A DNA stretch of 52,261 bases from an uncultured archaeon (GCA_964442255.1 CAYTYC010000009.1:1-52261), one strand, 5' to 3'. Shown: positions 18,472-28,128, numbered from the stretch's first letter. Numbers and translations are program-made. Notes: generated by a model not told the origin, from the letters alone.

Positions 18472-19113
18472 ATGAAGGTTTTGGCTGTGGCAGACGTGCA
18501 TTCCCATAAAAGCGCGGTAAAGGCGCTGAAAGAACAGGTTAAATTCAGTGAACTCGGGCTGATAGTTGTGTGCGGGGATTTAACGCATTTCGGGAACAGG
18601 GAAGACGCAAAGGAAATTGTGAAAGCATTTGGCTTCGGCAATATTCTCGTTATACCCGGAAACGTGGACCAAAAAAGTGTTTTGGATTTCCTGGAGGAAA
18701 AAAACATTTCCCTTCACGGAAAAGTGCGGACAGCGGAGGGCTGGGCTTTGGTTGGGTTCGGAGGGGCAGAAAATGCGCCGGGGGAAACGATTTTTTCGGC
18801 GGAAGAAATCTTTAAGGGCGCGGAAAAACTTATAGTGGAGCCTGAAAGGACAATCCTCTTCACGCACTCCCCCCCAGTGAACACGCTGCTTGACAAGACT
18901 TCAACAGGAAAGCACATCGGAAGCGTGGGGGTAAGGAAACTGGTTGAGGAAAAAAGGCCGGCTTACGCTTTCTTTGGGCACTGCCACGAGGCAAAAGGGG
19001 AAATGAAATTGAAGGAAACAGTCTGCGTGAACATAGGCCCGCTCAAGTGGGGGAACGCGGTGCTGATTGAGCTGGGGGAAGAGCTGGAATGGAAAAGAAT
19101 ACAGTTAAAGTGA
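18472..19113 (+). CDS. Calcineurin-like metallophosphoesterase (Icc-related)
   Basis: ADVH, CGDLT, PGNVD, THSPP, GHCHE. Confidence 0.92.
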   Translation: MKVLAVADVHSHKSAVKALKEQVKFSELGLIVVCGDLTHFGNREDAKEIVKAFGFGNILVIPGNVDQKSVLDFLEEKNISLHGKVRTAEGWALVGFGGAENAPGETIFSAEEIFKGAEKLIVEPERTILFTHSPPVNTLLDKTSTGKHIGSVGVRKLVEEKRPAYAFFGHCHEAKGEMKLKETVCVNIGPLKWGNAVLIELGEELEWKRIQLK

Positions 19114-19787
19114 AACTTAAGGGAGGAACCGGACAAGCTTTTTCAAAAAAAAGCTTGAGCAAAAAATCCCCCGCCTTCGGCGGAACAGCAGGTTCTGATA
19201 AAGGCCCGGCAAGATTTAAGATGGTTAAAGAAAGGCACAGGGAAACAATGGAGAAGGCGGTGTGCGAGGGAAAGGCGGATGAAAAAATGCTTCCGCTCCT
19301 GGAATTCATTGCGGGAACAAAAAACTTTTTCACGTCCTCATCCTGTTCCGGGAGAATTCTTTTGCTTGGGCTGCCAAAAGGCGAGGACAAAAAAGAGGCG
19401 TATTTTCACAGGCGGTGGCACAGGAAAGCGAAGGAAAAAGAGTTTTTGGGGGCGATGAAAGAGGAAACGCGGGGAGAGCTGTGGCTGAAGCAGGAGCCCT
19501 TCATTTTGCATGTGGGCGCGAAAACAATTGAAGGGTGCAGGAAGGTTTTGGGCGCAATGCATTCCGCGGGGGTGAAAAGGGGCGGAATCATTTCAGCAAA
19601 AGAGGGAAAATTTGTTGTGGAACTGCAGGGAACGCAGGGAATGCATATTCCGTTGAAAAAAGGGAAAAAACTCTTGGTTGAAGGGGAGTACCTGGATTTT
19701 CTTTTGGGAAAGGCGAACGAAAAGCTGGAAAAAAATTTTATTGCGCTCAAAAGGCTGGAAAAGGAGTTCAGGAAAGCGCTGAAGTGA
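19110..19787 (+). CDS. taw3: tRNA(Phe) wyosine-pathway methyltransferase Taw3/TYW3
   Basis: FFTSSSCSGRI, EPFILHV, GVKRGGI; start is either GTG 19110 (overlapping upstream stop) or ATG 19221. Confidence 0.9.
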   Translation: MKLKGGTGQAFSKKSLSKKSPAFGGTAGSDKGPARFKMVKERHRETMEKAVCEGKADEKMLPLLEFIAGTKNFFTSSSCSGRILLLGLPKGEDKKEAYFHRRWHRKAKEKEFLGAMKEETRGELWLKQEPFILHVGAKTIEGCRKVLGAMHSAGVKRGGIISAKEGKFVVELQGTQGMHIPLKKGKKLLVEGEYLDFLLGKANEKLEKNFIALKRLEKEFRKALK

Positions 19788-19793
19788 AAAGGA

Positions 19794-20333
19794 ATGGACG
19801 CAGAAGGAAAAATGAAGAGAATTTTTTTTGCGGTGAATGTTCCGGAGGAAGTGAGGGAAGAAATTGCGGAAAATGTTTTAAGCCAGATAAAAGGGGAAGG
19901 GCTGAAAAAGGTTGAAAAGGAAAACCTGCACATTACGCTCGCTTTTTTGGGTTACGTGCCTGCGGAAAAAGTGAAGGAAATTGAAGGAAAAATCGGGAAA
20001 CTTTCTTTTCCAGGGAAATTTGAAGCCGAGTTAAATGGAATCGGGGAGTTTGGGGGAAGGGTTTTATGGATTGGCGTGAAAAAAGGCGGGAAAGAACTGG
20101 AGGAAATTGCGGGAAAGCTGAATGAAGCCCTTGGGCTGAAGGAACGGTTTCACGCGCATTTGACCATCGCAAGGAACAAAAGGATGGACAGAGCCAGGTT
20201 CAGGGAACTGGTTGAGGGGCTGAAGAAAAAAGAATTTTCCCGGGGCTTCAGGGCTGAATCAGTTGATTTGATGGAATCAGTTCTGGCACCAAAAGGGCCC
20301 GAGTACAAAAAGCTTTTTGGATTCAGGCTGTGA
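19794..20333 (+). CDS. thpR: RNA 2',3'-cyclic phosphodiesterase / 2'-5' RNA ligase (2H family)
   Basis: RIFFAV, LHITLAFLG, FHAHLTIAR, SVL...GPEY. Confidence 0.93.
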   Translation: MDAEGKMKRIFFAVNVPEEVREEIAENVLSQIKGEGLKKVEKENLHITLAFLGYVPAEKVKEIEGKIGKLSFPGKFEAELNGIGEFGGRVLWIGVKKGGKELEEIAGKLNEALGLKERFHAHLTIARNKRMDRARFRELVEGLKKKEFSRGFRAESVDLMESVLAPKGPEYKKLFGFRL

Positions 20334-20387
20334 CCCCGGCATTGCCAATAATGGAAGGGGTTACCAACATATTAAAAATTAAGACCT
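20333..20387. repeat. att-like site A (core accccggcattgcc + right arm)
   Basis: Core identical to 22471-22484; the arm is the reverse complement of the site B and C left arms. Confidence 0.75.
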
Positions 20388-20479
20388 GCTACCATAACTC
20401 AAATTAAAGATAACTGAAACACTTGCAAAATAAACTAATGTAATGCCAAATATTAAGCGAAAGTAAGGGCTCTTTACAT

Positions 20480-20768
20480 ATTGTTTACTTTTTTCTGAAT
20501 AGCCAGCATACAATTAAGTTTACAACTACAATTAATATTGCGCTTCCCACAATCAAATTAGTGTCATTTATGAAATTTCCATAAACAAACGGAATCAACT
20601 CAAGAAAAAACAATCGGCATGAAAGCCGGGGTATTAAACCGCCTGACACGGAATAAAATCATCAGTAGACAAACCTTTATGTCTTGTAAAAAACCAAGTA
20701 ATCAAAAGCATAGCCGCTCCAAACAAGAGCAACGTAATTAAACCAGTATTAAAATCTATGAATGCCAT
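20480..20768 (-). pseudogene. Remnant of a membrane transporter, possibly sodium:solute symporter, with the middle deleted
   Basis: N-terminus MAFIDFNTGLITLLLFGAAMLLITWFFTRHKGLSTDDFI, a palindromic fragment, then a degraded hydrophobic C-terminal segment (LIPFVYGNFINDTNLIVGSAILI). Confidence 0.45.
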
Positions 20769-21033
20769 TACCTACACTCAAAAAAATAACTGGCGTTATA
20801 TGTATGTGGTTTGTCATTCCGCAAATTTCTCATCTCCTGCCTTTTGGCGGCAGCTTTCTTTTCAGGCCTGCCCATTTGCCTTTTAACAGTAGTTTTTTTG
20901 GGCAAGATATTTTAATATTTGCCTAATTTTAATGGAAACTTCTTTCCATTACTAATAGAAAGATGTGTTTTGCAGTCAAACAATATATTTAAATATATAT
21001 TCAGTTATTGAATTATTCAGTAGGTGAATATAT

Positions 21034-22413
21034 TTGAAGTTTGTTAATAGGGAAACTGAGCTGAAAGAGCTGGTAGAAATAAAGGCCCTTTCAGTGAAAA
21101 AGCTGTTTTTGGTAGCGCTTTATGGTTTAAGAAGGGTTGGCAAGACAAGGCTGTTGCTTGAGTTTCTTGAAAATAAAGGACATTATTTTTTTGTCAATAA
21201 GAACAAAACTTCTGCTGATCTTTTAGATGAATTTCAGGGCATTTTGAGAAAATCAATGGTTTTGGGAGAATTGGAAACTATTAATTCGTGGGACAAATTT
21301 TTTGAAATTTTAATTAAGAGAAAGATGTCGCCGGTTGTTTTTGACGAGTTCCAGAATTTTAGTTTTGTTGAACCTGCTGTTTTTGGAATAATGCAAAAAA
21401 ATATTGACTTGAATGAAAACAAACAAGGCTTGATTATTCTTTCCGGTTCTTTGATTGGTTTAATGAAAAAATTATTCAAAAATTCCAAAGAACCTTTGTA
21501 TGGAAGAATTAAAAGGGGTTTCAAACTTGAGCCTTTAAGCTTGAGTTCTTGCCTTGAATTAAGCAAAGAATTGAAATTAGACAAAGAAGACTTAATAAAA
21601 ATTTATTGTGTTTTTGGGGGTTGCCCCAAATATTTTGTTGCAATTGAAGATTTTGGTTTGCTGGGGAAAAAGGCAGAAGAAATCTTGGATTCGCTTTTGT
21701 TTGCTCAAAATGCGCCATTAGAAGACGAGGTTAACGGCATTCTTTCACAGGAATTTGGAGGCAGGAGTGGAGTATATTATTCTATTCTTGAAGCCATTGC
21801 CACCGGCAATAATACTTTGTCGTTAATTGCAGGTACTTTAAACACAAGTCCAACTTCCATCACCAGACAGGTTAAAGAATTAAAGGATTATTTTGAGTTA
21901 ATTGAGTTTGAAATGCCTTTTGAAGGAAAACGGGGCATCTACAAAATTAAGCATCCTTTAATGCAGTACTGGTTTTCACAAATTTACAAGAACTACTCAG
22001 ATTATGTTTCAAGAAAACCAGAATTTATTAAGAAACTGAAAGAAAATTTGGATTCATTTTACGGAAAAGCATTCGAAGAAGTAGCAAAAGAATTTTTGAT
22101 TAAAAAATTGGAGTTAAAGGAAACTAAAAGACAATGGGGAAAGATCAAGGATGCAAAAAAAGGCGAAAATGTTTATGAAATTGACTTGATTGCCAAAAAG
22201 AGAAAAGAAAGTTTTGCTTTTGAATTTAAATGGGCTGATTTATCATACAAAAAAGCACTAAAAGTATTAACTGAACTTGAAAAGAAAACAAACTATTTGC
22301 ATAAGAAACCCCAAAACTTAAAACTTGGTTTGATTGCAAAAAAAATTAGAGAAAAACAAAAACTGAGAAAAAAAGGATTTTTGATGTTTGACCTTGAAGA
22401 TATCGGTAAATAA
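21034..22413 (+). CDS. Archaeal ATPase (ATPase_2) with wHTH and C-terminal DUF234-like PD-(D/E)xK domain
   Basis: FVNRETEL, YGLRRVGKT, VFDEFQ, PLYGR, EIDLI...EFKW. Confidence 0.9.
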   Translation: MKFVNRETELKELVEIKALSVKKLFLVALYGLRRVGKTRLLLEFLENKGHYFFVNKNKTSADLLDEFQGILRKSMVLGELETINSWDKFFEILIKRKMSPVVFDEFQNFSFVEPAVFGIMQKNIDLNENKQGLIILSGSLIGLMKKLFKNSKEPLYGRIKRGFKLEPLSLSSCLELSKELKLDKEDLIKIYCVFGGCPKYFVAIEDFGLLGKKAEEILDSLLFAQNAPLEDEVNGILSQEFGGRSGVYYSILEAIATGNNTLSLIAGTLNTSPTSITRQVKELKDYFELIEFEMPFEGKRGIYKIKHPLMQYWFSQIYKNYSDYVSRKPEFIKKLKENLDSFYGKAFEEVAKEFLIKKLELKETKRQWGKIKDAKKGENVYEIDLIAKKRKESFAFEFKWADLSYKKALKVLTELEKKTNYLHKKPQNLKLGLIAKKIREKQKLRKKGFLMFDLEDIGK

Positions 22414-22421
22414 CAGTAAAG

Positions 22422-22507
22422 AGGTCTTAATCCCTCTTTATGTCATTAACACCTTCCAATATTGGTTTTCACCCCGGCATTGCCGTTATGAGTGGGTGTT
22501 AACAACA
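22422..22507. repeat. att-like site B (left arm + core + right arm)
   Basis: tgtcattaacaccttccaatattgg-ttttcaccccggcattg-ccgttatgagtgggtgttaacaaca. Confidence 0.8.
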
Positions 22508-22531
22508 TTAAAAGATAATATACTGGGAGGC

Positions 22532-23227
22532 TTACTCCCTATTTATTGCATATTTTATTGTAGCTTCAGCTAAGACTTCTACTGTATCAAATATTTCAAT
22601 ACCCACCCCATTCTTTTTTAATAAAACAGGAATATCCGTACAACCAAGAATTATTGCATCTGCACCGCCGTTCTTCAATTTTCCAATAATCCTTTTCAGT
22701 TCTTTTTTATCATTCTTCAACTTTTTGCCGGCTAAAATATTCAAAATAATGTTATTTACTGCTTTTTGCTCGTTGGGGATAACTAGTTTAATTCCATAGT
22801 TATCAAAGTCTTTTTCATATATCTTGCAGGTTATAGTTGTTTCCGTGGCAAGAAGCCCGACTTTTCCGTAACTCCTTGATTTTACCTTTTTTGCGGTTTC
22901 TTCTACAATACTTAAAAATGGAATTGAAAGCTCCTTCTTAACCCCATCATAAAAGTAGTTGGCAGTATTGCACGGCATTACAATAAAATCAACCCCAATG
23001 GATTCTAATTTTTTGGCTCCTTTAACAAGAACTTTTAATGTTTCACCCGGTTTTTTCAGTCCCTCAACTACATCAGGGATTGGAAGATTGTAGATAAAAA
23101 TCTCAGGGTAATCTTCATCATACTGTGCGCCATATTGTTTCTGGCACTGCACAATCAATTCTTGGTAAAAGATGGCTGTAGACTCTGGGCCCATTCCGCC
23201 TAACACTCCGACAATTTTCTTTTGCAT
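22532..23227 (-). CDS. Aspartate/glutamate racemase family protein
   Basis: GVLGGMGPEST, MPCNTA, ILGCTD (two catalytic cysteines). Confidence 0.93.
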   Translation of the reverse strand: MQKKIVGVLGGMGPESTAIFYQELIVQCQKQYGAQYDEDYPEIFIYNLPIPDVVEGLKKPGETLKVLVKGAKKLESIGVDFIVMPCNTANYFYDGVKKELSIPFLSIVEETAKKVKSRSYGKVGLLATETTITCKIYEKDFDNYGIKLVIPNEQKAVNNIILNILAGKKLKNDKKELKRIIGKLKNGGADAIILGCTDIPVLLKKNGVGIEIFDTVEVLAEATIKYAINRE

Positions 23228-23235
23228 ATTTTCAC

Positions 23236-23637
23236 TCAGCTTGTTCTGTATCCAAATTTTTTGCCATACTTCTTGTTTTTTGAATTCTTCTTTCTTATGC
23301 GTTTTTTAAATTCTTTATCAGGGGCCCCTATTTCTCTTTGCATAAATCTTTTTAGCGCTGTCCATTCGTATTCGTTTAGTTCTTCTCCTTTATATTTGTC
23401 GCAATATTTTTTACCTAAGTTTTCTGGCGCCTTTTCGGGTTTCATTAATTTTCCCTGCCACCACACGAGAACATAAACATTGCCGTTGTGTAATTCAAGC
23501 GGGGTTGCCCAGCCTCTAAGCCAATTTTTTTCTTGGCAGGACGATAACTCACTTAATTCTTTCAATTCCTTTTTTGTCATTTTGTCTAACGGAAATTTTA
23601 AATCAGCATGTCTTGTATAAATCGTTGTTGTTCCCAT
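23236..23637 (-). CDS. Hypothetical basic protein
   Basis: Open frame between the ATPase and racemase genes on the same strand; start probably MGTTT. Confidence 0.6.
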   Translation of the reverse strand: MGTTTIYTRHADLKFPLDKMTKKELKELSELSSCQEKNWLRGWATPLELHNGNVYVLVWWQGKLMKPEKAPENLGKKYCDKYKGEELNEYEWTALKRFMQREIGAPDKEFKKRIRKKNSKNKKYGKKFGYRTS

Positions 23638-23638
23638 T

Positions 23639-24862
23639 TCAATTTCCCTTGGGATTTTCAAGCTCTTTTATTAATTCCCAGGCATATTTCCCTTTCTTTT
23701 TTCCATTTAATCCAACTATCATATTTTTGCTATTATACTGTTCTGCAAAAAATTTCAGGTTTTTGGCGTCAGCTTTTTCGAAGTTGTATTTTGCTTCAAT
23801 TGCATATACTTTCTTTTCAGGAAGGATGAAGTCAATTTCTTGTTTGTTTGTTGTTCTCCAGAAATGTATTTTTTTGCCTGCTTTCAGTAATTCCAGAAAT
23901 ACAAATGTTTCAAAGCTCTGCCCGAAAATAATTTTTGGAAATTCTTTCAGCCAAATCAAATGCATCAAGCCAGTATCGAGGAGAAAAACTTTTGGATTTT
24001 TTGATAGCTCGCTTCGCAGGTTCTTATGAAACGGCGTAATCCTTTTTATAACAAAAGTATTTTCAAGCAAATCAAGATAATCAACCACTGTTTCCCGGCT
24101 AATGTCAAGTGTGTTTGCCAATTCAGAAATATTCAGCAGTTGTCCTGACTGCGATGCAAAGATTTCAACAAGTTTATTGAAGGTTGAAACATTCCTAATA
24201 TTGCCGATATCTCTTATGTCTTTCTTTATATAAGTGCTAATAATCTGAAACAAAAAAGTTTGCTTTTTTTCTTCTGCTGGCTCAAGAACAATTGAGGGGT
24301 ATCCCCCAAATTTGATAAACTCTTGAGCAAGTAAAATAAGTTCATTATTTATTGCTTCAGAGTTTTCTTTTAGAAGCCTGTATTTTTTGCCTTTGAAAGC
24401 CAAAAATTCTTCAAAACTTAAAGGATAAAGCTCAAACACAATTGTTCTTCCAACAAGGCTTTCCTTGAACTTTTTCCTGATTTCAAGGGTTGATGAGCCT
24501 GACACCAGCAACTTTATGTTGGAGTAATGGTCGTGTAAAATTTTAATAAATTTACTCGGATTTTCCAAGTACTGTATTTCATCTACTATTAAGTAAATTT
24601 TCTTTTTTTCATCAGCCCCCTTTTGCAGAAGATAATTATAAACTGCTTTATCCCCGCGGTTGCACAAATCAAGTAAATCTTGATGTTCCAAATCAAAGTA
24701 AAAAGTGTTTTCTTTCAAGTAGTTATTCATCAAATATTTTAACACGCTTGTTTTTCCAACCTGCCTTGCACCATAAACAACTATTGCGTGTTTTGAATCC
24801 AGATAGTTCAGGATTTCATCCACAACTGGCCTTTTAAATAAAATAGCAGACATGTCAATCAA
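23639..24862 (-). CDS. AAA_14 ATPase with DUF4143 domain (COG1373)
   Basis: GARQVGKT, IVDEIQ, VSGSS, ESLVGR, FGGYP, QEIDFI...IEAK. Confidence 0.92.
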   Translation of the reverse strand: MIDMSAILFKRPVVDEILNYLDSKHAIVVYGARQVGKTSVLKYLMNNYLKENTFYFDLEHQDLLDLCNRGDKAVYNYLLQKGADEKKKIYLIVDEIQYLENPSKFIKILHDHYSNIKLLVSGSSTLEIRKKFKESLVGRTIVFELYPLSFEEFLAFKGKKYRLLKENSEAINNELILLAQEFIKFGGYPSIVLEPAEEKKQTFLFQIISTYIKKDIRDIGNIRNVSTFNKLVEIFASQSGQLLNISELANTLDISRETVVDYLDLLENTFVIKRITPFHKNLRSELSKNPKVFLLDTGLMHLIWLKEFPKIIFGQSFETFVFLELLKAGKKIHFWRTTNKQEIDFILPEKKVYAIEAKYNFEKADAKNLKFFAEQYNSKNMIVGLNGKKKGKYAWELIKELENPKGN

Positions 24863-24917
24863 ATTCTTATGTTATTTGCATATTATACTGTGCAATTTAT
24901 ATTTAAGCCTTTGCATT

Positions 24918-25009
24918 GGGCCTTAATTCAGCAAGGTGTCGCTAACACCTTCCAATATTGGTTTTCACCTTATCCTCGCCAACAAAAATGCATAGAGCTT
25001 ATGTGTTAA
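24918..25009. repeat. att-like site C
   Basis: 27 nt identical to site B (taacaccttccaatattggttttcacc); core accttatcctcgcc at 24967-24980. Confidence 0.8.
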
Positions 25010-25030
25010 AATTAATGGTTTTGAAGTGCT

Positions 25031-25282
25031 TTAAAGCATTTGACCCCAGAACGCTGCAAAGTAGCTGCCTTCGCAGCTTGCAACATGCCTGCCAAAGGGA
25101 AGCCAGTGAACTTTGTAGTCGCAGATTAATTCGCCTGTTTGCTTGTCTATTGTTCCATCTGTGTGAGCCCTTTCCTGAAAAACCTTGTCGCGAATTTCCT
25201 GGTTGTTTGGCCAAGGAGCCCAGGCGAGTAAAAGCAGGAATAAGGCAATTGCAGTTATTGCGATTTTTGTTTTTTGCTTCAT
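25031..25282 (-). CDS. Small membrane-anchored hypothetical protein
   Basis: N-terminal hydrophobic helix, 83 aa, follows the Fic gene on the same strand. Confidence 0.65.
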   Translation of the reverse strand: MKQKTKIAITAIALFLLLLAWAPWPNNQEIRDKVFQERAHTDGTIDKQTGELICDYKVHWLPFGRHVASCEGSYFAAFWGQML

Positions 25283-25286
25283 TTAT

Positions 25287-26219
25287 TCAGCCCTTTAACG
25301 CATTTTTGTATTGTTTTTTGAATCTTCTTGTCAACCTGATTGCAAGGTTTCGTGCATTGTTGTTGTAGTGGCATTTTTCCAAAGCATTAAAGTATTGCTG
25401 TTTTTCTTTTGTTTTGATGTCAATCATTGCGTAACCGTTTTTGTGCAAAACATGGTTCATTATGATTCTTGCCGTCCTGCCGTTTCCGTCTTGGAATGGG
25501 TGAATTCTTACAAATTTCCAGTGCGTCCAAGCGGCTAATTCTAGCGGATGCAATTCTTTCTTTAGCCTGGCATATTCTTTGAAGTAGTTTTTCATGTCCG
25601 GAATTACAAGCCTTGTGGGAGTTGTTTCAAAATGCGAGCCCCTCACGCTGTTTTGATGCGTTTTGTATTGGCCGGCAATTTTTGGCTTTGTGTCCTTGAA
25701 GTACATTTCGTGGATTTTGTGAAGCAATTGTTCTGACAGTTCTTCTTTTGTTTGCTTTATGAATGCCAGTGTTTTTTGTGCTGCCTTTGCTTCCAGCACG
25801 TCATCCAATGGCTTGTTTGGCGCAATGTCTTCGCTTAGCAATAGTTCGACTTCTTTCGGGCTTAAAGTGCTGCCTTCAATCGAATTAGTGTTGTAGACGA
25901 ATGCCATTACGAAATTCTGGTCAAACTGTTCTTGCACTGTCTTGTTTTGCTTGCCGTATCTCTGCCAGAATTCATTGTTTATTTCATCAATTTCCTTTAT
26001 TTCCTCGTTCGCCAAGTAATGGTGGCCGTGCAGCTTTAGCTTTTCTGCTTCAACTTTTTCCTCAAATTTTGCCGTCAAAACCTGCAATTTTGTTTCAGAA
26101 GGCATTTGGTTTCCGATATAATCCCTTAACTGCTTTCTCCTGCCGCCGCCCAAGGAGATATTCTCCACCAGGTAATAATATGTTTTTTCTCCCTTACGCT
26201 GCTTTGCCACATACGCCAT
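25287..26219 (-). CDS. Fic family protein
   Basis: YNTNSIEGSTL and canonical HPFQDGNGRTAR. Confidence 0.93.
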   Translation of the reverse strand: MAYVAKQRKGEKTYYYLVENISLGGGRRKQLRDYIGNQMPSETKLQVLTAKFEEKVEAEKLKLHGHHYLANEEIKEIDEINNEFWQRYGKQNKTVQEQFDQNFVMAFVYNTNSIEGSTLSPKEVELLLSEDIAPNKPLDDVLEAKAAQKTLAFIKQTKEELSEQLLHKIHEMYFKDTKPKIAGQYKTHQNSVRGSHFETTPTRLVIPDMKNYFKEYARLKKELHPLELAAWTHWKFVRIHPFQDGNGRTARIIMNHVLHKNGYAMIDIKTKEKQQYFNALEKCHYNNNARNLAIRLTRRFKKQYKNALKG

Positions 26220-26447
26220 GAATAGTTATTACTCAAAAACATTTAAAAATGGGTGAGTAATAACAATAAAAGAGTAATAATGAATATTTTGCAGAATTTC
26301 CGGTGCGGCTGCCCGTCCGTCTTTTCGGACAGCCGTCAATTTTTCGGACAAAATTCATGTTTGTGGGTTAATTGAAAAAGTCCCTTAAACTGGAAAAATA
26401 GTTTGCATAAAACCCAAATTTCTTCATATGGCAATGCTCCAAACACT

Positions 26448-26513
26448 GGTGCTAACAACTGCGCTTTTTGCGAGGACAACCTCATCATCGCCGTATGTAT
26501 TACATAGTGTTAA
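26448..26513. repeat. att-like site D (degenerate)
   Basis: gctaaca ... core acctcatcatcgcc (26479-26492, 12/14 match to core C) ... gtgttaa. Confidence 0.5.
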
Positions 26514-26562
26514 TGCCTTAAAATCAACGGTTTTGGGGCAATCGGCTGTTTCTGCAGCCGTT

Positions 26563-28128
26563 TTACAGGTCCGCGGAAATTTTTTCCAGCAAAGCGTTTG
26601 GGTCGTAGTAGTATTGCTGGATTATTTTCTCAACATCCGGTGTTGCCTTTATTCCTTTTGCAAGCATCCATTCAAGGATTCTCTGCCTTACCCGCATTTC
26701 CTTGTGCAAATCCTTTTTGGAGTTCATTGTCTTCTCCGCAAGCATTTCCTCAACGCGGGAAGGGATGTCAGTTCTCCGCAGTTCGTCTTTTTCCGGGTCC
26801 CACTGGAACAAGTCGCCCAACAGGGGCTTGTTTTCCATTCTCCCGATTTCGGAAATCTGCACAATTCTCCTGATTATTCCCTGCCCGCGGATGTACATGC
26901 GGTGCTGCATTATAATCAAATTCAACAATGGAATCATTACTTCAGGCACGTCCATGGGACTGGCCTTCAGCCTTAATAGAAGCTCTCTTCCGTTGTTTGA
27001 ATGCAGAGTCCCAAAGCAGCCCCTGTGGCCGACATCCATCGCAACAAACATGGTTTGGGCTTCCTTTCCCCTCACCTCCCCCACAATAATCCTGTCCGGG
27101 CGCATCCTCAAAGAGTTTTTCAGCAATTCATCCATTGTAACTTCAGGCAATTCGCGTGTCGGCGGCTTGGCCTCCATTTGAATCCAGTTCTGCCTTTTTC
27201 CCAAAGCCAGCTCCAGGGTGTCCTCAATTGAAACAATTCTGTCGCTGTAACGGATGAAAGAGGCAAGGGCATTCAAGGAAGTTGTTTTTCCGCTTCCCGC
27301 CCCTCCGGAAATGATCATGTTCATTGGCTCAATGTTCAGTCCTTCGGTCATCGCCCACAAAAAAGCCGCAACTTCCGGGGTTAAAGTGTTGTTTTCAATC
27401 ATCTGCACAATGCTCAACGGGACAACCGTGAACTTCCGGATCGTGAGGCTTGGCCCGGCGGGGGTTGCGTAAGGGACCGTGGCGTTTGCGCGGGAGCCGT
27501 CAGGAAGGCGCGCGTCAAGCAGCGGCGCTGTGGAATCAATTTTCTTGTCCGCTGTTGCCGCAATCCTGTGAACCAAATTGGGGATGAAAAGGCTTTTTTC
27601 CACATCCAGATTTGTTTCGCACATCCCGTATTTTTTGTGGAAAACAAAAACCGGCTTGTAAAAGCCGTTAACCATCACTTCCTCCAAATCCGGGTCGCGC
27701 AATGGCTCGGAAAGGTAGCCGTATCCGATTGTGCTGTCAACAAAAGAGGTTGCAACGGCCTCCGGGCTTTTCACGAATGAAAGGTGCTCTTTCACGAGCG
27801 CAAGGAGGTTTATTTTCACCGCGCTCAATGTTTCGGTGTCAGGCAGTTTTCTCAGCGCTTCGCTGGACTGGATGATGCGGACAACCTGTTCGTTGAAGGC
27901 GGAACAGAATTTTTTTGGGACAGTTGCCTTTACTTTTGAGGAAATGTCGGAGGCATGGAGCTTCTTGAACACAACGCCTTTCAGCGCCTCCAAAAGGTTT
28001 TTCTCTTCTTCGGAGAATTTGGGTTCGGAAACGCCGTAAAGATAGAAGGGGTAGCCGTCAAAAATCTTTATCCTGCCCCCGGATTCAACCACGTTTCCCT
28101 TGGACTGCATTTCGTTTTCTTCAGGCAT
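26563..28128 (-). CDS. CpaF/TadA/VirB11-family secretion or pilus assembly ATPase
   Basis: LDARLPDGSR, GGAGSGKTT, SIEDTLEL, LRMRPDRIIVGEVRG, GH.G..GTLH. Confidence 0.94.
   Translation of the reverse strand: MPEENEMQSKGNVVESGGRIKIFDGYPFYLYGVSEPKFSEEEKNLLEALKGVVFKKLHASDISSKVKATVPKKFCSAFNEQVVRIIQSSEALRKLPDTETLSAVKINLLALVKEHLSFVKSPEAVATSFVDSTIGYGYLSEPLRDPDLEEVMVNGFYKPVFVFHKKYGMCETNLDVEKSLFIPNLVHRIAATADKKIDSTAPLLDARLPDGSRANATVPYATPAGPSLTIRKFTVVPLSIVQMIENNTLTPEVAAFLWAMTEGLNIEPMNMIISGGAGSGKTTSLNALASFIRYSDRIVSIEDTLELALGKRQNWIQMEAKPPTRELPEVTMDELLKNSLRMRPDRIIVGEVRGKEAQTMFVAMDVGHRGCFGTLHSNNGRELLLRLKASPMDVPEVMIPLLNLIIMQHRMYIRGQGIIRRIVQISEIGRMENKPLLGDLFQWDPEKDELRRTDIPSRVEEMLAEKTMNSKKDLHKEMRVRQRILEWMLAKGIKATPDVEKIIQQYYYDPNALLEKISADL

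Follow-up and report, generated by a model that had tools for sequence, protein, structure and literature searches.

A probable accretion island in a DPANN archaeon, split by attachment-like sites that match the 5' end of a predicted box C/D guide RNA gene

A stretch of 52,261 nucleotides from an uncultured archaeon (GCA_964442255.1, CAYTYC010000009.1:1-52261; hereafter the window) carries, between the gene thpR and a gene for a T2SSE-family ATPase, a 6.2-kb island that four related short sites, A to D, split into three modules of cargo genes. The original prediction, made from the window's sequence, had seen in this island a tandem-accretion platform for gene capture, with a recombinase that was not in view and would act in trans. 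The locus thus raises the question of what the sites are and which enzyme would use them. Our answer is that they are very probably hybrid attachment sites, produced by the site-specific integration of three modules that carry no integrase. Their common 14-nt core is, on the opposite strand, the beginning of a conserved box C/D small RNA (sRNA) gene, and in other genomes of the same DPANN order it adjoins a tyrosine integrase with a zinc ribbon. The source genome (G000) measures 1.28 Mb in 51 contigs and is 93.8% complete.

The four cores were verified in the window (Table 1). Cores A and B are the same at 14 of 14 positions (ACCCCGGCATTGCC), and cores C and D match at 12 of 14. The left arms of sites B and C share 27 identical nt and are 80% alike across 51 nt, and the left arm of B recurs, inverted and interrupted, as the right arm of A, with a block of 17/19 followed by one of 10/10 (ttaagacct) over a span of about 46 nt. 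Exact copies of the 19-mer TAACACCTTCCAATATTGG lie at 22447 and 24943, and an inverted copy with two mismatches lies at 20345; these three matches compare with a mean of 0.02 in 100 shuffled sequences, none of which reached three. Site A has neither a left arm nor an sRNA body, and the TGA stop of thpR provides base 1 of its core. The GC content drops near this stop, from 0.46-0.48 to 0.32-0.35, and is 0.32-0.41 in the island (20.3-26.5 kb) against 0.44-0.51 in the flanks. Analysis with Pfam identified thpR, an ATPase_2/DUF234 protein, an Asp/Glu racemase, an AAA_14/DUF4143 ATPase, a Fic protein and the T2SSE-family ATPase; the island also contains two further open reading frames (ORFs), an unnamed one of 141 aa and one of 83 aa. 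What had been claimed at first about the cores, the arms, the shift in composition at the thpR stop and the cargo was thus borne out.

To place these sites in a wider context, we searched the source genome with a site profile (nhmmer), which detected six full sites (E ≤ 1e-15) and three partial ones. Outside the window, sites lie at C16:3575, C16:5522, C12:1759, C12:3004, C33:2916 and C43:24, and the sites of this genome are spread over five contigs. Some are close copies of those in the window: the core and right arm of site B are 94% identical to C16:3575-3606 (the right arm being that of C16:3575), and site C is 83% identical over 192 nt to C16:5493-5684, a copy with a consensus core, both of its arms matching C16:5522. 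The cargo beside the non-window sites is similar in kind to that of the window and includes ParE-like and MazEF toxin-antitoxin pairs, AbiEii and Bro-N, and paralogues of the 83-aa ORF of module 3 adjoin the sites on C16 and C33. Searching 196 genomes of the order by blastn with site C revealed clear homologues in other families, from which a consensus core, ACCTCATCATYGCC, was derived; the left arm of site C is 91% identical to G110:C111. The motif search in this genome and in related metagenome-assembled genomes (MAGs), which the original prediction had proposed, returned 169 copies of this core in 68 of the 196 genomes, as compared with one for the reversed control. The copies are mostly clustered in direct orientation, 0.4-12 kb apart. 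Counts were made in 30 fetched loci. Two or more sites, always in direct orientation, occur together in 24 arrays. The 43 modules that these sites delimit range from 365 to 12,578 bp in length, with a median of about 1.8 kb, and 36 of them contain one to four mechanically called ORFs. The cargo is accessory in kind, comprising AAA_14/DUF4143 and DUF234 ATPases, AbiEii, MazF, DNA methylases, a ResIII helicase, ArsR with a permease, glycosyltransferases, transporters and a TATA-binding-protein (TBP) paralogue.

Three observations on individual arrays are reported here in their own right. Contig ends often lie within 20 nt of a core (G007:C14:7, G007:C53:3, G004:C13:4, G081:C17:2, G099:C14:2, G122:C60:3); assemblies may break at cores through repeats or population heterogeneity. 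In G083:C23 (L100) a single module has an AbiEii/AbiEi pair at one end and a PQQ beta-propeller gene at the other. In the source genome (C12:1-4700, L002) a PQQ end and an AbiE end, whose arms match, are turned towards each other on either side of a MazEF module, an arrangement that looks like a permuted or tandem form of the G083 element. Finally, the TBP paralogue occurs as cargo in two genomes (L104:3597-4187 and L110:1796-2386; 171 and 170 bits), where it adjoins a PCC-domain protein and a SinI-like ORF.

We then examined how cores and arms are combined. Among 89 distinct core matches, every combination of left-arm and right-arm families is present. In the 82 sites that remain once seven doubtful matches are set aside, conservation is confined to the central 14 nt and a T at position -2 and does not extend to the outer ends. 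The best partner of a left arm is a right arm of its own type, irrespective of location, and other arm families also occur as inverted pairs; the arms with TAAC...GTTA ends are only one of several families. The idea that the two ends of a module always pair was rejected, complementarity tracking arm families and not modules. No tRNA gene was detected in the 21 array loci scanned, showing that the arrays are not anchored on tRNA genes.

In order to determine if the island had been inserted, we compared the orthologous region in seven relatives at the family or order level. Six of these have thpR and the gene for the T2SSE ATPase as convergent direct neighbours, with about 0-75 bp between the alignment ends and no att-like sequence; in the seventh, thpR is missing at that position. 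Since the site is empty in six of seven relatives, the 6.2-kb island is an insertion, and the identical gene content that had been named beforehand as speaking against such a reading was not seen. The ATPase gene of module 1 together with 65 nt upstream (20969-22404) shows 76.8% DNA identity to a module between two sites in G087, which belongs to another family and where remnants of the same arm type flank both sides of the shared cassette. Orthologues of the flanking T2SSE ATPase were found at 45-59% identity in 41 of 41 genomes searched, a set that did not include G087, and in the order-level relatives listed there the protein identity is only 43-59%. This difference argues for transfer of the cassette. 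The Fic region (25294-26279) has 79.8% DNA identity to G106:C56, and AAA_14/DUF4143 ATPases are repeated cargo in the arrays of other genomes. The tandem-accretion platform first proposed is thus supported by the insertion, by the order-wide family of sites and by arms that assort freely around a conserved core.

The nature of the core became apparent on the opposite strand, where it forms the initial 14 nt of a conserved box C/D sRNA gene: a GGC stem, the C box AUGAUGA and three guide bases. The sRNA is about 62 nt long, and 22 sites of relatives read GGCR-AUGAUGA-12 nt-CUGA-loop-AUGAYGA-guide-CUGA-GCC-U run. The C, D', C' and D boxes, guides of about 12 nt and a terminal stem are all present at these 22 sites and at C43:24-89. 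The sRNA body constitutes the commonest left arm: 15 of 24 arrays have it at their first site, whereas only 4 of 43 later sites carry it, and at 7 of 12 single-core loci the sRNA gene stands alone with its single core. In the source genome one copy is intact, at the start of a contig (C43:24-89, L003), and a decayed one lies on C33. Window sites A to D hold only the 5' 14 nt of the gene; an sRNA model found no match on the window's contig, and an Rfam scan of window positions 19000-28000 gave nothing below E 0.5. At all five of the intact sites that were scanned, Rfam yielded full-length, sub-threshold C/D-box matches on the predicted strand. Beyond the order's genomes, the 5' 21-mer of the sRNA was found in 44 metagenome loci, 18 of which pass a strict four-box pattern. 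The right arms are consistent with the same origin. A TATA-like motif lies 24-37 nt from the core in every window right arm, and TTAAAAttaa, whose most conserved columns are about 25-31 nt from the core, would sit at the position expected of a TATA box relative to the sRNA start.

The guides of the sRNA suggest what the target gene does. The D' guide pairs over 10 contiguous nt with 23S rRNA positions 2602-2611, and the consensus D guide over 9 of 10 nt with positions 2631-2640, 30 nt apart; shuffled guides gave a mean of 0.02 matches to rRNA at no more than one mismatch. The paired region is, we assume, the A-loop region of domain V. For the C43 sRNA, the predicted target of the D' guide is a U in a UGUU loop of 23S rRNA, which we take to be the U of the A-loop whose 2'-O-methylation is common to all domains of life. 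The product of the predicted sRNA gene is probably a methylation guide for the peptidyl-transferase region of 23S rRNA.

A candidate enzyme was found beside cores of other genomes. In G097 a site adjoins a truncated tyrosine recombinase that is not XerA. Its full-length relatives are Xer-like proteins of about 430 aa, with conserved catalytic residues R, K, H, R, H and Y and a C-terminal CxxC...CxxC zinc ribbon; their nearest solved structures are the XerA chains 4a8e and 5hxy (E about 4e-6 to 8e-6). Their scores are far under the cut-offs of the XerA and IntI models. A large protein collection holds 44 clusters of this zinc-ribbon integrase, none with an informative name. The 30 best loci of an order-wide integrase search were checked for a core upstream of the start codon. 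A core lies 64-71 nt upstream of the integrase start at 10 loci, reading GGCRATGATGAGGT on the coding strand. Its presence follows the relatedness of the integrase: the core was found at all seven assessable loci with at least 55% identity to the query integrase, at three of five with 34-39% identity, and at none of 17 loci with more distant integrases. In G033 and G099 the integrase lies at one end of a module (6.1 and 12.6 kb, respectively) that is itself bounded by two sites. The original prediction had suggested looking for recombinases beside other copies of the sites. The tyrosine integrase answers to this at ten loci, whereas the other enzymes that it had named, Cas1 (PF01867) and serine recombinases, gave nothing, none being found in this genome. 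That no recombinase was in view in the window holds for the whole source genome as far as core-linked integrases are concerned, and we infer a recombinase acting in trans on the window modules.

We propose the following mechanism. The sRNA gene would be the natural attB, and a lambda-like exchange would take place within or beside the core, in the segment common to both partners. We would tentatively place a 7-bp overlap, ACCTCAT, with the weak half-site GGTGTTA on its left and the strong half-site CATTGCC on its right. In the sequences, the heptamer to the left of the core has the consensus GGTGTTA, a weak mirror of CATYGCC, with T at -2 in 77 of 82 sites, and in three arm families the centre of the inverted-repeat pairs falls near core position 3-4; the polymorphic core positions 3, 4 and 11 track neither arm family, and the crossover cannot be placed by them. 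Each element would carry, in its right arm, the sRNA promoter together with a core, so that the sRNA gene would be rebuilt at one end after integration. Repeated integration would then generate tandem arrays whose junctions have mosaic arms. Read in the sRNA sense, each junction would be a promoter with a C-box leader aimed into the next module, and this direction matches the minus-strand orientation of all the genes of modules 2 and 3. The variant 14-nt core common to A and B is rare, which is why we read A and B as an attL/attR pair. The array of the window could be a displaced copy, in which the stop of thpR takes the place of the sRNA body; the last bases of thpR (caGGcTGTgA) bear a loose resemblance to the usual left half-site. 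A multi-module circle may therefore have integrated at a secondary site, but the sRNA body may also have been lost. The array would now be movable only with an integrase supplied in trans and would otherwise be a fossil.

The promoter-like junctions could also be understood in another way, the sites being duplicated sRNA promoters and C-box leaders that regulate their neighbours, for instance through a kink-turn (k-turn) bound by L7Ae, in an island that arrived otherwise. This agrees with the TATA-like motif of every right arm, from which all the genes of modules 2 and 3 point away, as do 84 array ORFs against 44. However, it leaves unexplained the fixed spacing between integrase and core, the free assortment of arms, the sRNA body at array starts and the presence of one and the same cassette between different arms in another family. 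We therefore consider this explanation quite improbable; a regulatory role alongside recombination could exist.

There is likewise only a slight chance that the housekeeping XerA moves the modules, in the manner of elements that use Xer at dif or of the pdif modules of Acinetobacter plasmids. XerA is the sole tyrosine recombinase of this genome, being its only PF00589 match (277 bits for a cut-off of 220), the dedicated integrase is itself Xer-like, and it is missing from most core-bearing genomes. Nevertheless, the sites occur at several loci per genome, and not singly as dif does, and the core is the C box of an sRNA and not an 11-6-11 palindrome (no dif site was identified for comparison).

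The ends of module 1 recall a different kind of element. Their inverted repeat with the identical 14-bp direct repeat outside it, together with the inverted pairs of other arm families, might indicate non-autonomous transposons with terminal inverted repeats, the 14-bp repeat being a target-site duplication as in casposons. Yet the sequence of the supposed duplication is the same throughout 68 genomes and belongs to the functional parts of an sRNA gene, no Cas1, which a casposon reading calls for, was found in the genome, and the gene that travels with the core encodes a tyrosine recombinase; transposition is thus very improbable. Finally, an integron cassette array without integrase, that is, a cluster of attC sites lacking an integrase (CALIN) with hairpins recombined by IntI at the GTT of the R' box, is scarcely credible: although sites B, C and D start with TAAC and end with GTTA, the toxin-antitoxin, Fic and ATPase cargo is like that of integrons and PMC9668308 reports integrons and CALINs from archaeal MAGs, only B among six sites folded on both strands was better than shuffled sequences (z -1.95 and -2.63; the other ten strands, -1.33 to +1.15), conservation in the 82 sites concerns the central core and not terminal R boxes, the scores of the linked integrases on TIGR02249, the model for IntI, are 31.4 and 38.1 bits for a cut-off of 265, and modules of one to four genes have no uniform orientation. 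The suggestion made at the outset of a crossover unlike that of attC is in line with this folding result.

Several observations weigh against hybrid attachment sites as we propose them. The dyad around the core is weak: on average, 3.39 of the 7 positions of the left heptamer agree with the mirror of CATYGCC, and none of 13 other registers exceeds 2.66. Three of the four cores, A, B and C, carry mutations. A and B no longer have a C box (on the minus strand core A reads GGCAATGCCGGGGT), and C is two changes away from D (ACCTCATCATCGCC, the consensus form closest to C). The array of the window may thus be dead. It has no sRNA body and abuts thpR, a position for which our model does not account. 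The sRNA matches stay below the Rfam gathering cut-offs, with 20.6-27.6 bits for sR1 (cut-off 45), 23.1 for sR17 (36) and 24.3 for snoU54 (35); the C/D families of Rfam are built around particular guide sequences. The cognate integrase is absent from a genome that is 93.8% complete, where tblastn with the integrase found nothing at 1e-8, and a close integrase is present in only about 10 of the 68 core-bearing genomes. There is also no direct sign of recombination at the window locus. Two public read runs of one study contain the stretch, assembled only as short Logan contigs (unitigs of 0.5-0.8 kb, depth 4-6). Of these, the X2 contigs run across sites A and C and extend to D, matching the window exactly. 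No joint was seen at any site and no excised form was found in these contigs, which are too short and shallow to bear on excision. The last 24 nt of thpR had no match in metagenomes, which provided no strain-level variant of the locus.

The features of the locus are collected in Table 1. In the right arms, the TATA-like motif is tattaaaaattaag at 20370-20383 for site A, cattaaaagataat at 22506-22519 for B, gttaaaattaatgg at 25005-25018 for C and ccttaaaatcaacgg at 26516-26530 for D. Site D, with a consensus core (GGCGATGATGAGGT on the minus strand), is the only one in the window with an intact C box, and its right arm is of the type found ahead of intact sRNA genes in other genomes. The putative transporter remnant of the original prediction corresponds to three overlapping hydrophobic ORFs in the left part of module 1 (minus strand, 20379-20768). 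They measure 44, 54 and 44 aa, differ in frame and have the appearance of a membrane-protein gene broken by frameshifts; the 54-aa piece, the only one of the three scanned, had no match in Pfam. Genes for TYW3 and an archaeal CCA-adding enzyme are close to the locus.

A 62-nt stretch in the decayed part of module 1 (20597-20658) is 95% identical at C27:11195-11256 and C6:16178-16239 and 87.5% identical at C1:42580-42626 of the same genome. Elsewhere in the genome this repeat forms the second half of a two-hairpin element of about 100 nt, with sub-threshold matches to HgcC (26.5 against 50 bits) and SmY.

Table 1. Coordinates of the junction sites, cargo modules and chromosomal flanks in the window.
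Feature	Position	Strand	Evidence
thpR, LigT-type 2',3'-cyclic phosphodiesterase, left chromosomal flank	19794..20333	+	Pfam LigT_PEase 83.8 bits
Site A: core 20333-20346, right arm 20347-20390	20333..20390	-	site-profile nhmmer E 0.0024
Module 1 cargo: decayed hydrophobic ORFs (minus) and intact ATPase_2/DUF234 gene 21034-22413	20391..22419	+	
Site B: left arm 22420-22470, core 22471-22484, right arm 22485-22519	22420..22519	-	nhmmer E 1.5e-16
Module 2 cargo, every gene minus: Asp/Glu racemase 22532-23227, 141-aa ORF 23236-23661, AAA_14/DUF4143 ATPase 23639-24862	22520..24918	-	Pfam
Site C: left arm 24919-24966, decayed core 24967-24980, right arm 24981-25023	24919..25023	-	nhmmer E 1.1e-17
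Module 3 cargo: 83-aa ORF 25031-25282, Fic 25287-26219	25024..26447	-	Pfam
Site D: left arm 26448-26478, core 26479-26492, right arm 26493-26535	26448..26535	-	nhmmer E 1.6e-17
T2SSE-family secretion/pilus ATPase, right chromosomal flank	26563..28128	-	Pfam T2SSE 123.9 bits

These arrays share features with several known systems. As for attP and attB of phage lambda, a common core is present at all junctions and the arms differ by partner, giving hybrid attL and attR; unlike in lambda, good conservation of the core is limited to its right half-site. Accretion arrays are known from the cis-mobilizable elements related to ICESt1 and ICESt3 of Streptococcus, the composite islands of the staphylococcal cassette chromosome (SCC) and the tycheposons of Prochlorococcus. 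They have in common with the present arrays repeated integration at one site and att-bounded units, many of them without a recombinase and presumably mobilised in trans. Here, in contrast, the host is a DPANN archaeon, the target is the C box of an sRNA, the recombinase is of another family and every junction carries a promoter copy. tRNA genes are the textbook integration targets of archaeal and bacterial integrases. According to PMC8371274, the pTN3-like integrases of Thermococcales target the 5' half of a tRNA gene. Both systems, the present one as we propose it, use a tyrosine integrase that targets the 5' part of a small stable-RNA gene, with an element that restores the gene and supplies its promoter; they differ in the target, here a box C/D sRNA gene and not a tRNA gene, in the promoter, here in the integrase-distal arm, in the integrase family with its zinc ribbon, and in the dominance of small integrase-less module arrays. 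With integrons and CALINs, as presented in PMC9668308, the arrays share small accessory cassettes between recombination sites, an excess of integrase-less over integrase-bearing arrays and the frequency of toxin-antitoxin and defence cargo. Unlike them, they have no IntI, attC hairpin or fixed attI, the integrase rides inside a module, the proposed exchange takes place at a conserved central core, and the cassettes are often multi-gene with their own regulators.

A box C/D guide RNA gene serving as an attachment site was not found in the literature searched: the review PMC8371274 has no mention of sRNA, snoRNA or DPANN, and a survey of Pyrobaculum sRNAs (10.1101/121921) none of integrase. Nothing in this literature appears to describe the target, the integrase clade or the host group. 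The locus is a tandem accretion array that uses a new target and a new integrase family, its mobility in this genome being a prediction from sequence.

A broader picture can be drawn more tentatively, and we hold it to be possible rather than probable. The DPANN order would have its own counterpart of the integron, in which a zinc-ribbon integrase docks cassettes at the C-box end of a guide-RNA gene, the junctions act as promoters with C-box (k-turn) leaders that transcribe, and perhaps regulate, the next cassette, and integrase-less cassettes are shuffled in trans between genomes and loci. If the proposed attachment sites are what we believe them to be, the recombinase and the target would be identified for a gene-collecting system present in about one third of the sampled species of a DPANN order. 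The system comprises a compact integrase and a site of 14-21 bp, which would be directly testable, and it would explain how very small genomes gain defence, transport and regulatory modules.

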